Assembly: GCA_040753815.1 (NCBI GenBank)
Contig: JBFMDU010000021.1
Location: 5,011-69,010, forward strand
Length of the DNA: 64,000 bases
Source of the DNA: Chloroflexota bacterium
GTDB taxonomy: Bacteria; Chloroflexota; Dehalococcoidia; GIF9; JBFMDU01
Direction of reading: 5' to 3'
In this document: in pieces, positions 1,230 to 38,380 of the stretch
Numbering within the stretch: position 1 is the first letter of the stretch
Layout of the letters: every line of letters begins with the position of its first letter
Program-made: the position numbers and the translations under genes
Notes under the pieces: model-generated
Told to the model about the DNA's origin: nothing
The model's database searches: none
Seen by the model: only the letters and a program-made list of their open reading frames with translations

Positions 1230-2438
1230 CTACAGCAATAGCGGGATGCGCCCGAAGGCCTCTTCGTCGGGTTTGCTATAGCTCGCTTTTCGCTTGCGCC
1301 GGGTCGTATCGCCCGCCATGTAGTCAATTGCCTTGCTGAAGAGCTCGGTGACCCGGCCGACATCGCCCAGTTCGGACAGAATCAGGCTTAGCTCCATGGC
1401 GCGTCCCCGTCTGGGGTAGTCGCCGCCTCTTATAGTGGCTTCCGGAGCCACCCGTTTCAGAGAGCCTCCAAGTTCCTTGAGCAGGGATATGTGCATCGCT
1501 TCCGGCGGCGCTGTTAAAAGATAACACGCTCTGACGGCTTCCTGCGGGTTGCAGTCGAGCGATAGCTCGTCCAGGGCCTCACTTACCAGCCTGACCCCCT
1601 TTTCGACTGTGGCTAACTGGCTGCCGACCGGGTGTTTCTCACCTAACCCCAGCCCGGGAAATAAGGCTCGTCCTCTCTCTCCAAGCAATTTCCGTTCTTT
1701 CCGGTCGGTGCCGCGGCCAACTACCGTCCACCCCGCCAGGCTCTGAATAATATCTCCGGCATCCAGGACCTTACCCCCGATGTTGGCGGGGCTTCTCTCC
1801 TCGCCGGCGCATAGCAGGTTATAAAAAGGGGCGACTACGGTTTCGTTAATCTGGTTCAGAGTATCCTCCGGTGATGCGTTATCCGTAAAGTATCTCTGGT
1901 TGTCAACCAGGAATACCGCATCAGCCGCCAGATAGACAGACTTGAGACAGGCGCTGGCGTTGTAAACGGTCACCGGCTTTTCAATTTCCTCTCTCACGAA
2001 AGGAAGAACAATAAGGTTGTATGCTGGTTTGTTGGGGCAGTGTTCCTTCAAAGACCGTGTTAGCGCCGGAATCAAGCCGGAACCGGTGCCGCCAGCGGCG
2101 GCGGCAATGAGCATGAAGGCATCCATTTCGCCGCTGCGCAGGGTCGGCTCCACGGCTTCGATAACGCGCTCGCTATCTTCTCTTGCAATCTCGGCGGCAA
2201 GTTCGTTGGTCTCTCCCGGCTCGCGGCTGAATACTTCGTTGTAACCGAGAATTATCCTTGGGAGTATCTCGTCCGCGGCAGGTGACAGGCCGTCAAAATC
2301 AGCCGCACTGGTGGTTACGACAAGAGAGTCCGTAACTATTTCTATATGGCGCTCCGCGCGCGCTTTTCTGCCAAGCGCTGCGAAATGCTCGGCAATTCTG
2401 CCGCCGCATAGACCACAGCCTATGACCAGTAGTTTCAC
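1230..2438 (-). CDS. FtsZ/tubulin-superfamily GTPase, divergent (CetZ/FtsZ-like), not a canonical FtsZ
   Basis: 402 aa with a GTG start. Motifs: MKLLVIGCGLCGGRIA (N-terminal G-box), AAGGTGSG signature (nt 2076-2093), NLIVLPFVREE (FtsZ T5/H5-like), VFLVDNQ (cf. FtsZ IVIPND) and KVLDAGDI (T7-like LDxxD). A basic linker ends in the C-terminal peptide EEAFGRIPLLL. Confidence 0.7.
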   Translation of the reverse strand: MKLLVIGCGLCGGRIAEHFAALGRKARAERHIEIVTDSLVVTTSAADFDGLSPAADEILPRIILGYNEVFSREPGETNELAAEIAREDSERVIEAVEPTLRSGEMDAFMLIAAAAGGTGSGLIPALTRSLKEHCPNKPAYNLIVLPFVREEIEKPVTVYNASACLKSVYLAADAVFLVDNQRYFTDNASPEDTLNQINETVVAPFYNLLCAGEERSPANIGGKVLDAGDIIQSLAGWTVVGRGTDRKERKLLGERGRALFPGLGLGEKHPVGSQLATVEKGVRLVSEALDELSLDCNPQEAVRACYLLTAPPEAMHISLLKELGGSLKRVAPEATIRGGDYPRRGRAMELSLILSELGDVGRVTELFSKAIDYMAGDTTRRKRKASYSKPDEEAFGRIPLLL

Positions 2439-2456
2439 AGCTCACCCGCGATGCCA

Positions 2457-2704
2457 GGCGGTTCTCGAAACACCAATGATGTTAACATAATTTTCGAAAG
2501 GGTTTAGCCCTTTCGAGCTTTTCCAAAGGCGGTCTTTGAGACGCCAATGATGTTAGCACAATTTTCGTAAAGGGCTACGGCCCTTCGTCTTCTCCGAAGG
2601 CAGTCATTGAAACACCAATGATGTTGGTATAATTTTCGCAAAGACCAAGGCCCTTTCGGGCTTTTCCAAGGGCAGTCATTGAAACACCAATGATGTTAGC
2701 ATAA
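2457..2704. repeat. Tandem repeat, about 3.5 copies of a 71-72-bp unit
   Basis: Copies start at 2457, 2528, 2599 and 2671. The conserved core is GAAACACCAATGATGTT[AG][AG]CA[TC]AATTTTCG. It is followed by a variable GC hairpin (e.g. CGAAAGGGtttaGCCCTTTCG) and a T-rich run. The array fills the whole gap between the tubulin-like start codon and the SDR stop codon. Confidence 0.85.
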
Positions 2705-2724: not shown

Positions 2725-3546
2725 CTATTGGCGGCTCGTTTTGAGCTTGCCGGTAAGGCGGTACCAGGTTAACAATACCATCCCGCGTACCAGCCGCCAG
2801 CCGCTGATGACCGCGTAGCTCTTGCCCGTAATCTTGCCGGGTCCCCGGGCGGCGGCACGGGCGACCATTTTGCCTACCGCTTCCGCCGGGACCCCCAGCG
2901 CCTTAAAGACGTACTCAGTGCTTTTCGGTTGTCCCTCGGGCCGACCGGTCTTATAAAAGTCGGTCCGCACCATGCCGGGTGAGATGACATGTATCGAGAC
3001 CGGGTGCCTGCGGTTTTCCTTGGCGAGGCTCCGCGTCAGGCTGACGACCGCCGACTTGGTCGAGGCGTAGGTGGCCATCATCGGGCTGGCGTCGCCTTTG
3101 CCGCCCTTGCCGCTCATGTTGAAGAGAGTCCCGCCCCCTTGCTTGATAAAGTAGGGGATGACCATGCGGCAGGCTTTGAGCAGTCCGGCATAGTTGATGG
3201 CGATGATGCGGTCGATTTCCGGCTCGCTCAGCGCCGGCAGTGGCCGAAAGCCTCCGGAAACCCCGGCGTTGTTGACCCAGATGTCTACTTTGCCCCACGT
3301 CTGAACAGCGTGCTGGAGCAGGGAATCGAGGTCTCTGGAGACCGAAACGTCACAACGGATACCGGACGCGGCTAGCCCCTGGTCATTGAGTTCGGCTACG
3401 GCTTTGACGACATCGGCTTCACTGCGCGAGCAGATGACGACCCTGGCGCCGTCTCTAGCCAGAGCTTCGGCAATGGCCCGGCCGATGCCCTTGGTCGAGC
3501 CGGTGACGACGGCGGTCTTGCTTTCCAGTGGCCTTGTACTACTCAT
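2725..3546 (-). CDS. Short-chain dehydrogenase/reductase (SDR) family oxidoreductase
   Basis: Motifs TGSTKGIGRAIA (TGxxxGIG), NNAG and YASTKSAV (YxxxK). I moved the start to ATG 3546, which has GGGAG 9 nt upstream. The ORF-track start at 3582 has no SD, so the alternative span is 2725-3582. Confidence 0.85.
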   Translation of the reverse strand: MSSTRPLESKTAVVTGSTKGIGRAIAEALARDGARVVICSRSEADVVKAVAELNDQGLAASGIRCDVSVSRDLDSLLQHAVQTWGKVDIWVNNAGVSGGFRPLPALSEPEIDRIIAINYAGLLKACRMVIPYFIKQGGGTLFNMSGKGGKGDASPMMATYASTKSAVVSLTRSLAKENRRHPVSIHVISPGMVRTDFYKTGRPEGQPKSTEYVFKALGVPAEAVGKMVARAAARGPGKITGKSYAVISGWRLVRGMVLLTWYRLTGKLKTSRQ

Positions 3547-3605
3547 GCTGGTCTTCTCCCTGATGGTAGCCGTAAGTGTCATTTCGAAAGGAGCGCTTTT
3601 TCTTA

Positions 3606-3699
3606 TGTCATTCCGAAGAAGCGGAGCGATTGAGGAATCTGGCGGTGGGGTGGAATTAACCCGGCCCCGCTAGATTTCTCACTGTCGTGCGAAATGGCA
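3606..3699. repeat. Palindromic intergenic repeat element (inverted pair of a ~35-nt unit)
   Basis: TGTCATTCCGAAGAAGCGGAGCGATTGAGGAATCTGG (3606-3642) faces a degenerate inverted copy, GCTAGATTTCTCACTGTCGTGCGAAATGGCA (3669-3699). Related units recur at 38248-38380. Confidence 0.6.
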
Positions 3700-4953: not shown

Positions 4954-5697
4954 CTAAAACAGCTCTTTAATGTTACGCATTTGATCCTTACCCGCATTTA
5001 GCCTTTCGTCTTTGGCTACGTCATAATCATCAAATAAGCGGTCATACGTGACTATTTGTAGGCGCGGGTTCTGCGTGCAGATCTCTATTCGCCGACGATT
5101 GTCTGCGGAAGACATTGTTGCACGTCTACCTATGACTATAAAATAGTTGCATGGTCTCCGCAAAGAGCCATCTCTCTCGTAATCGCTCGAAAAGAATCCC
5201 AGTGCTGTAAGGCTATCTTCAGCTAACTTTGCTAGTTCAATTGATGCATACTGCGAATGATCCGTCATCCAAGATTGCCAGTCCAGAACTTGGCGTATTG
5301 AGTGCGTTAGTTTTTCAGTAGGATCACCTGCTTTTGTAAAAAGCAGTACATCCGCCCTTTCTATTTCAACGAAGGTCCACCACAAGCCCATGGAGTTCGC
5401 GTTACAAAAAGCAAAATCAACTTCATATTCTGCTCCTAGTGCCACTTTTGAATATAGTGCGGAACGAGTTGAGGCAGCTGGATAAAAACCGTCCAGCATC
5501 GCGTGCAACAATAACACCGGATGCCTCTCCAAAAATGCCTGAATTAGTGCTTCTTTCGGTTTAGCCTCTATCAAGTTTTTGAATGTTTGCCTGTCTTTTC
5601 CATATTTCTTCAATAGCAGGTTCGTACGCCCAACAGGATATGATTCATTGTCAACTCTTATGGCTAACTTTCTTAGGAGATCAACTTTCTTCTGCAT
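4954..5697 (-). CDS. DUF4263 / Shedu (SduA)-like PD-(D/E)xK nuclease-fold protein candidate
   Basis: 247 aa in a low-GC stretch. EALIQAFLERHPVLL ... YEVDFAF ... WTFVEIERADVLLFTK ... LTHSIRQVLDWQSW matches my memory of the DUF4263 pattern (E..lq.FLe.nPwll ... pDf ... vEiK ... Qv..Y..w). Confidence 0.55.
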   Translation of the reverse strand: MQKKVDLLRKLAIRVDNESYPVGRTNLLLKKYGKDRQTFKNLIEAKPKEALIQAFLERHPVLLLHAMLDGFYPAASTRSALYSKVALGAEYEVDFAFCNANSMGLWWTFVEIERADVLLFTKAGDPTEKLTHSIRQVLDWQSWMTDHSQYASIELAKLAEDSLTALGFFSSDYERDGSLRRPCNYFIVIGRRATMSSADNRRRIEICTQNPRLQIVTYDRLFDDYDVAKDERLNAGKDQMRNIKELF

Positions 5698-38247: not shown

Positions 38248-38380
38248 CCAGATTCCTCAGTCGCTTACGCTCCTTCGGAATGACATAGGAAAGAGCCGCT
38301 TCTTCGGAATGGTATGATAAGCTGCTTCCTCGGAATGACACGTTTAACGCATGTCATCTCGAGCGGAGCGAGAGATCTGG
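38248..38380. repeat. Cluster of four copies (both orientations) of the dispersed ~35-nt TGTCATTCCGA[AG]GAAGCGGAGCGA..GAGGAATCTGG element
   Basis: Inverted copies lie at 38248-38285, ~38295-38312 (16-nt exact match to 3609-3624 on the opposite strand) and 38321-38340. A forward copy lies at 38352-38380. The same family occurs at 3606-3699. Confidence 0.6.

Follow-up and report, generated by a model that had tools for sequence, protein, structure and literature searches.

The window analysed here, a stretch of 64,000 nucleotides from a Chloroflexota bacterium (GenBank assembly GCA_040753815.1, contig JBFMDU010000021.1, positions 5,011 to 69,010), carries a tandem array at positions 2457-2704, in the spacer between a gene for a short-chain dehydrogenase/reductase (SDR) and a gene for a CetZ-like protein of the tubulin/FtsZ family. 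This array is a locus-specific intergenic minisatellite, or variable-number tandem repeat (VNTR): we show a repeat that is found at this junction only, whose copy number varies at orthologous loci and in which a short motif is conserved. In the orientation of the CetZ-like gene, that motif reads as a candidate promoter. Promoter activity, its strand and the effect of copy number we infer from the conservation of the motif in six lineages, and we give an even chance to the proposal that the array is made of tandem promoter and inverted-repeat modules that feed the CetZ-like gene.

Organisation of the array

The array has a period of 71-72 nt and comprises three full units and a 34-nt core. The units start at 2457, 2528, 2599 and 2671, the final one being the core alone. 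Tandem Repeats Finder returns positions 2467-2704, with a period of 71, 3.3 copies, 78% matches and a score of 295, while a repeat search gives start-to-start spacings of 71, 71 and 72 nt and also returns three 71-nt copies together with a 55-nt family spaced 71 and 72. An earlier reading made from the letters only (the sequence-only reading hereafter) had described a 71-72-bp tandem repeat; both programs agree with it, and the unit starts it gave are accurate. The array occupies the whole spacer between the SDR and tubulin-like genes, which both lie on the minus strand. At its proximal edge, 19 nt separate it from the GTG (2438) of the tubulin-like gene, and at its distal edge 21 nt from the TAG (2725-2727) of the SDR gene, and here too the earlier description was right.

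In gene orientation, the SDR stop codon is followed by core 4, hairpin 3, core 3, hairpin 2, core 2, hairpin 1 and core 1, then by an 18-nt leader with GGGTGAG, and by the GTG start codon. The cores and the leader are given on the minus strand, the hairpins without strand. Core 4 (2671-2704), the distal, partial unit that adjoins the SDR stop, carries the sense-strand motif TATGCTAACAT at 2693-2703. Hairpin 3 (2637-2665) is decayed and register-shifted, and reads GCCC-GAAA-GGGC on the sense strand. In core 3 (2599-2632) the sense-strand motif is degraded to TATACCAACAT, and the plus strand reads TTGAAA-N15-TGGTATAAT. Hairpin 2 (2569-2586), AAAGGGC-TACG-GCCCTT[C], is shorter than hairpin 1, and core 2 (2528-2561) has the sense-strand motif TGTGCTAACAT at 2550-2560. 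Hairpin 1 (2494-2516) is the inverted repeat TCGAAAGGG-N5-CCCTTTCGA, with a perfect 9-bp stem. The proximal core 1 (2457-2490) reads TTATGTTAACATCATTGGTGTTTCGAGAACCGCC on the sense strand and has TRTGnTAAYAT at 2479-2489, with 40 nt from the end of the hexamer to the GTG. The leader (2439-2456), with its Shine-Dalgarno-like GGGTGAG, is not repeated; it is conserved at orthologous loci (23/24 positions identical between the window and the lineage L122).

The cores of the window are 79-94% identical to one another. The period of 71 is not divisible by 3, and codon periodicity is lacking in the cores. The core sequence proposed in the sequence-only reading is exact in copy 1, but differs in copy 2, with GAGACG, and in copy 3, where TA replaces CA. 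In the same way, the TCATTG/CAATGA mini inverted repeat which it described is present in copies 3-4, but it is private to the window and is not conserved at orthologous loci.

A single locus with a variable number of units

The array unit is confined to one locus. Outside this locus, BLAST against the own genome (1.98 Mb) returns only chance-level matches of 14-23 nt (best E = 0.019), and a position-weight scan of the same genome finds nothing above 14 bits except the four cores. A 20-base core pattern, allowing up to two mismatches, has no match in 202 genomes of the order; a sequence model made from seven units gives four matches of 16-20 bits in 202 genomes, about two being expected by chance. 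A BLAST search of plasmid and phage collections with the unit gives no match, and the best matches of the array region in Rfam 15 have 10-11 bits (E = 5-10). The sequence-only reading had not noticed the core elsewhere in the window, an absence that holds and extends to the whole genome. Scattered copies, which would speak against a link with the tubulin-like gene, were looked for by BLAST, position-weight scan, pattern and sequence model, and none of the four sees any. Since the unit is found nowhere outside its locus, the array is not a scattered element of the repetitive extragenic palindrome (REP), BOX or miniature inverted-repeat transposable element (MITE) type.

Two groups of matches were set aside as chance. 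The nine matches of the core pattern in viral contigs are all in the YGDDNIMGVSK-coding part (GDD motif) of picorna-like RNA-dependent RNA polymerase genes, and the position-weight matches in relatives' loci are in coding sequence for the N-terminus of DnaJ.

A dispersed family of REP-like elements, based on the 18-mer TGTCATTCCGAAGAAGCG and its reverse complement, is also present in the genome, with about 30 copies at up to two mismatches. Within the window this family is found at 3580-3625 (one copy, in the NMT1_3-SDR spacer) and at 38268-38340 (three in tandem). Kinship of the array with it was considered and rejected: the two have only short chance words in common.

Five further lineages, from Dehalococcoidales/Chloroflexota metagenome-assembled genomes, have the SDR-tubulin junction, with 72-87% protein identity for the tubulin-like protein and 78-85% for the SDR. 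The gene order NMT1_3-SDR-tubulin is kept in 5/5 of them, and a convergent coiled-coil gene comes next wherever the contig extends beyond the tubulin gene (for L220, it is on a separate contig, L208). The spacer, measured from stop to start, is 69 nt long in L124, with one decayed core and no hairpin. It is 144 nt long in L122 and 147 nt in L123, with two cores and one hairpin each, and about 181 nt in L220, again with two cores and one hairpin. In L125 and the near-identical L126, L218 and L219, it has about 205 nt (annotated 178 in L125), three cores, of which the middle one is decayed, and two hairpins. The window has the longest, 286 nt, with four cores and three hairpins. In L123 the direct repeats have a spacing of 72 nt, in L125 spacings of 71 and 135 nt. 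The spacer of L220 aligns collinearly with those of L122 and L123, with 63-68% identity and z = 8-9 over shuffles.

Elsewhere the array is absent: there is none at L206, whose homolog is 57% identical and has another gene upstream, none at about 160 CetZ-like loci of 43-52% identity, and none at the two CetZ paralogs of the array genome. The array is thus bound to the SDR-tubulin junction, where it is vertically inherited and changes in unit number. The variation of copy number at one junction is the behaviour of a minisatellite, and the array has both of the features by which a VNTR is recognised, a head-to-tail non-coding repeat of at least 10 bp and a variable number of units (1, 2, 2, 2, 3 and 4 cores across six lineages). 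The search of the whole genome and of the relatives, which the sequence-only reading had recommended, hence finds a unit that is unique to this junction and whose copy number varies; the link between array and tubulin-like gene which it drew is borne out by the presence of the module at the matching junction in five other lineages, with varying copy number.

A promoter-like motif on the strand of the gene

On the gene-sense strand, the least variable stretch of the 12 cores is A-T-G-y-T-A-A-y-A-T-C-A-T, and with the bases that precede it the conserved piece becomes TRTG-n-TAAYAT. This is the extended -10, or -16-region, form of a sigma-70 promoter motif. The motif reads TATGC-TAACAT in core 4, TGTGC-TAACAT in core 2, TATGT-TAACAT in core 1 and TATGT-TAATAT in the distal core of L220; TRTGn followed by TAnnnT is found at a suitable distance upstream of the gene in cores 1, 2 and 4. 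TRTGnTAAYAT is kept in the distal cores of all module-bearing lineages. It persists where the four-fold degenerate sites of the adjacent gene are just 49-77% identical, including lineages with 49-58%, and also in L220, despite the divergence of its spacer. The whole genome has 17 occurrences of TRTGNTAAYAT, both strands included, of which three are in the array.

The promoters of other members of the family are a useful comparison. Distant CetZ-like genes (L039-L205) have in common, 30-60 nt upstream, a strong TTGACA-N17/18-TAAAAT preceded by TATG, with T and G at -4/-3; this -10 ends a median of 29 nt before the start codon. The array core looks like the -10 half of this family promoter, or the same kind of element, as may be judged from the -10 regions AATTATGCTTAGAAT (L089, a distant CetZ-like gene) and AATTATGCTAACAT (array). 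Another CetZ paralog in the array genome has an extended -10 (TGATATAAT) without a good -35, and therefore the organism plausibly uses such promoters. As an aside, the conservation of the promoter of the distant CetZ-like genes suggests high constitutive expression of this cytoskeletal family.

Constraint on the array appears modest, and the numbers are small. Between the window and L122/L123, identity is 0.82-0.91 in the distal core, 0.89 in the hairpin and 0.74-0.76 in the proximal core, compared to 0.73-0.77 at four-fold sites; between the window and L125, it is 0.74 in the hairpin, 0.76 in the proximal core and 0.58 at four-fold sites. Hairpin 1 has its ortholog in the single hairpin of L122 and L123 (33-34 of 38 positions identical); greater divergence is seen in hairpins 2 and 3, whose stems are shorter or register-shifted. 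In the identity matrix, the cores of the window resemble one another and a consensus-like core more than they resemble their positional orthologs, a pattern which suggests some concerted evolution. A history of separate proximal-type and distal-type cores was dropped, the matrix being of the concerted-evolution kind rather than one of clean orthology.

Other signals were also considered and put aside. The AAAC-N16-CGT of a neighbouring extracytoplasmic function (ECF) sigma gene is not in the array at a workable spacing, which leaves no ECF-sigma promoter. Comparison with general consensus sequences, made without a program, reveals nothing beyond a half-site for dif/Xer, Fur, DnaA, CtrA or LexA. 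A small RNA hairpin within the core (AACAUC/GGUGUU) is, by eye, not kept in orthologs. There is also a 19-nt imperfect inverted repeat, 74% complementary, whose arms at 2687-2705 and 2713-2731 span core 4 to the last codons and stop of the SDR gene; in L122 and L123 it is, again by eye, weak or absent, and it is probably incidental.

Proposed mechanism and alternatives

The reading to which we give an even chance is the following. A module of 71-72 nt was duplicated head to tail. It consists of the 34-nt core, whose conserved heart is an extended -10 motif in the orientation of the CetZ-like gene, and of a GC-rich inverted repeat flanked by A-runs, which sits at the place that a -35 element would have for the next core downstream. 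As direct repeats of 34 nt at a distance of one unit, the cores could be gained and lost: unequal recombination or slippage between them would add or remove whole units. The promoter copies (cores 4, 2 and 1 intact, core 3 degraded) would start transcripts that all enter the tubulin-like gene, the upstream copies yielding longer leaders that contain the hairpins. Copy number would tune the expression of this third CetZ paralog, so that evolution could adjust expression through the number of units. Relative to the putative start of the next core, the inverted repeat covers about -44 to -22; it may be an operator, or else the stem-loop of a leader or terminator.

Several observations weigh against this proposal. 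A promoter scan with a 16-18-nt spacer finds no canonical -35/-10 pair on either strand, and the sense promoter would have to work with the extended -10 alone. Position-2 A of the hexamer is lost in the proximal core of L125 (TGACAT), and the first T is lost in core 3 of the window and in the proximal core of L220. The proximal cores of L122, L123 and L125 differ at an approximately neutral rate (25-26 of 34 positions identical vs 0.58-0.77 at four-fold sites), so that selection on every core is unproven. L124 manages with a single decayed core and a different -10-like hexamer (TACAAT). As for the inverted repeat, the sequence-only reading had stressed a stem whose sequence varies while pairing is kept, but hairpin covariation is not significant: in seven units from five lineages, 82.5% of cells are paired, the shuffles give 81.0% and reach the observed value in 122 of 500 cases, and only two double-sided changes are found. 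Fold energies are mixed: four units favour the plus strand, three the minus strand, and L220 is opposite again.

It is possible, without being probable, that the array is a functionless minisatellite, born of a chance duplication and drifting in copy number, in which the motif reflects shared ancestry and partial homogenisation. Drift would explain that copy number varies freely among close lineages, L124 being almost without the module, that the middle unit of L125 and unit 3 of the window are decaying, that the proximal cores evolve at about the rate of four-fold sites, and that the pattern of similarity within the window suggests concerted evolution. It explains less easily why ATGyTAAyAT is kept in distal and proximal cores despite 49-58% four-fold identity, and why it is also kept in L220, whose spacer is 63-68% identical to those of L122 and L123. 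The hairpin and the distal core are somewhat above four-fold sites (0.82-0.91 vs 0.73-0.77, window vs L122/L123), and the tubulin gene needs a promoter in the spacer unless it is read through from the SDR gene. An array of operators, which we regard as unlikely, would put the conserved bases to another use: the 14-bp near-palindrome T(T/G)ATG-TTAA-CAT(C/A)A, the 9-5-9 inverted repeat, or both, would bind a dimeric transcription factor, and sites about seven helical turns apart would allow cooperative repression or activation of the tubulin-like gene. Indeed ATGTTAACAT is a perfect 10-bp palindrome in core 1, the arms CCATG-TCAA-CATGG in the proximal core of L220 form a perfect palindrome, the position of the inverted repeat relative to the next putative start is typical of an operator, and hairpin fold energies without a consistent strand preference fit a role at the DNA rather than the RNA level. 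Yet most copies have an imperfect core palindrome, the genome has no further sites for either motif, hence no regulon, and no transcription-factor gene is conserved nearby except an ECF sigma/anti-sigma pair, whose AAAC-N16-CGT autoregulatory-type motif is not in the array.

Transcription could also go the other way. The sequence-only reading likened a unit to a promoter followed by a hairpin and a U-tract, the promoter being read on the plus strand in copy 3, and thought of micro-transcription units. In an antisense array of this kind, TTGARA-N15-CATAAT would fire away from the tubulin gene into hairpin and T-run, giving RNAs of 30-40 nt or promoter interference with sense transcription; this is quite improbable in our opinion. 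In copy 3, TTGAAA (2607-2612), 15 nt and TGGTATAAT (2625-2633) had been read correctly, TTGAGA is present in 8/11 cores, the hairpins of the window, L122 and L123 are followed by GCTTTTCC on the plus strand, and four units fold slightly better on that strand. However, the 15-nt spacer is sub-optimal and a consensus scan finds no match; L220 has lost the -35/-10 pair in its two cores, and so has L125 in its distal core, where the spacer has 12 nt; the T-run, separated from the stem by 2-3 nt, has 4 T and is missing in L220; the terminator scan accepts none of the plus-strand hairpins, Rfam finds nothing, and the predicted RNA would be barely more than the stem of a terminator. Each unit does have promoter-like and hairpin elements, but the plus-strand promoter and the U-tract are not conserved, and the piece kept in all lineages has the look of a promoter on the other strand, that of the gene. 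An RNA element on the sense strand, either a terminator or attenuator stem-loop of the SDR gene or an upstream open reading frame of 16-18 codons coupled to the tubulin start, is to our mind very improbable. The hairpin of unit 1, on the minus strand, is the only one that passes the terminator-like scan, and the hairpins of L123, L125 and L126 fold better on the sense strand through G-U pairs; but no U-tract follows the stems, L220 shows the opposite strand preference, and terminator-like sites are not enriched in the genome (20 found vs 20.0 expected). The upstream reading frame (2436-2489, minus strand) runs from the ATG of the proximal core to a TGA that overlaps the tubulin start (GTGA/ATGA), it is open in 5/6 lineages, and indels of +3 and -3 preserve its frame. 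Against it, L220 has lost the frame, the ATG has no Shine-Dalgarno sequence before it, codon periodicity is missing, and 5/7 codon differences between the window and L122 are non-synonymous; the latter two points led us to reject it as a coding leader peptide.

The sequence-only reading had also likened the array to tubC. A centromere-like or anchoring site, to which a CetZ-like or coiled-coil protein would bind directly or via an adaptor, deserves hardly any credence, even though tandem repeats lie directly upstream of a tubulin-family gene and array and gene co-occur in six lineages. The protein is CetZ-like and not TubZ, the locus has no gene for TubR or another DNA-binding adaptor, the context is chromosomal and catabolic, the units have 71 nt and are not short iterons, the ortholog L124 is reduced to one decayed core, and no other CetZ-like locus examined has an array, including those of the two paralogs in the same genome. 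A broader version, in which the core-plus-palindrome units would be the cis protein-binding platform of a bacterial CetZ-like/coiled-coil module, serving as autoregulatory operators or as a chromosomal anchoring site, is a long shot. If true, such a platform would be the chromosomal equivalent, for a CetZ-type filament, of tubC/parC, and in the anchoring version the binder would be the coiled-coil partner or an unknown adaptor.

Genes and genome setting

The CetZ-like gene (1230-2438, minus strand, GTG start) codes for a tubulin/FtsZ-family GTPase of 402 amino acids, with matches to Pfam Tubulin (1.2e-20) and CetZ_C (1.7e-13). In a PDB search, its best solved relative is Haloferax CetZ1 (4B46, E = 1.8e-34, full length), whereas the match to TubZ (4XCQ, E = 1e-4) is confined to the GTPase motif; judging from these matches, the gene downstream of the array is CetZ-like rather than TubZ. 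CetZ-like proteins in Dehalococcoidia were previously noted (PMC9871819). We find the family widespread in the order, with 1-3 paralogs per genome, and the array genome has three.

On the other side of the array, the SDR-family oxidoreductase gene (2725-3546, minus strand, stop at 2725-2727) is the last of an NMT1_3-SDR row. Its product matches Pfam adh_short (5.5e-51), and the 273-aa form is common to the orthologs. The locus lies on a 330-kb contig of the 1.98-Mb genome, in a conserved catabolic gene row, and the setting is chromosomal. Its neighbours are the SDR and NMT1_3 genes, a Shedu nuclease gene, a gene for a coiled-coil protein and the ECF sigma/anti-sigma pair. No DNA-binding domain is matched by the coiled-coil protein, and no TubR-like gene is found near the array at the window locus or at the orthologous loci, in agreement with what had been remarked before.

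The ECF sigma gene and its DUF5667 anti-sigma partner lie just left of the window (C21:2321-3761), and a similar pair is found in L125 (L125:7661-9122). The pair is divergent from the coiled-coil partner gene, an arrangement kept in at least two lineages, and its own upstream region has AAAC-N16-CGT beside TATAAT. The Shedu (SduA_C) nuclease gene (4954-5697) is in a low-GC patch and splits the amidase-NMT1_3-SDR row; it is not in the orthologous rows of L122, L125 and L218.

The practical value of the array is small: it shows where, in an uncultured Dehalococcoidales lineage, the promoter region of one of three CetZ-like paralogs probably lies. The natural series of one to four units could be used to test how the copy number of a promoter affects the expression of a bacterial CetZ homologue, and in metagenomes the array could be used to type strains of this lineage.

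Comparison with known systems

The centromeres tubC and parC, of the TubZRC (type III) and ParMRC (type II) systems, are made of short iterons of about 11-12 bp next to a gene for TubR or ParR, on plasmids or phages. Like them, the array consists of direct repeats immediately upstream of the gene of a cytoskeletal filament, and overlaps the promoter region; unlike them, it has no short iterons, no adaptor gene and no plasmid or phage context. The array fails every feature of tubC that was tested, namely TubZ family, TubR gene, short iterons and plasmid or phage context. The analogy drawn in the sequence-only reading thus falls with the CetZ-like nature of the protein, the missing TubR, the chromosomal locus and units of 71-72 nt, and CetZ-like loci at 57% identity or less are without array. 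This removes a tempting, unsupported link to DNA segregation of the TubZRC type.

BOX, REP and MITE repeats, to which the TGTCATTCCGAAGAAGCG family may be added, are also non-coding modules that contain hairpins and vary in unit number, but they are dispersed in many copies, while the array is found at a single locus and is vertically inherited with its flanking genes. The mycobacterial interspersed repetitive units (MIRU-VNTR) of Mycobacterium tuberculosis form a dispersed family with tens of loci per genome, often with small coupled open reading frames, and the copy-number variation of tandem repeats in this species is reportedly treated in one study. The array differs from them in that its unit is present at one locus only and gives no coding signal. 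The likeness is in the head-to-tail units of 40-100 bp between co-directional genes, in a copy number that varies among close relatives, and in units that diverge through point changes and small indels.

Tandem promoters are exemplified by P1 and P2 of the rrn operons, and tandem duplications of promoter regions can be selected for higher expression. Unlike rrn P1/P2, the array units are without a -35 hexamer, an inverted repeat being in its place, and their activity is deduced from motif conservation. What the array would share with such promoters is a series of sigma-70-type -10 elements directed toward one gene, which would come from the duplication of a promoter region.

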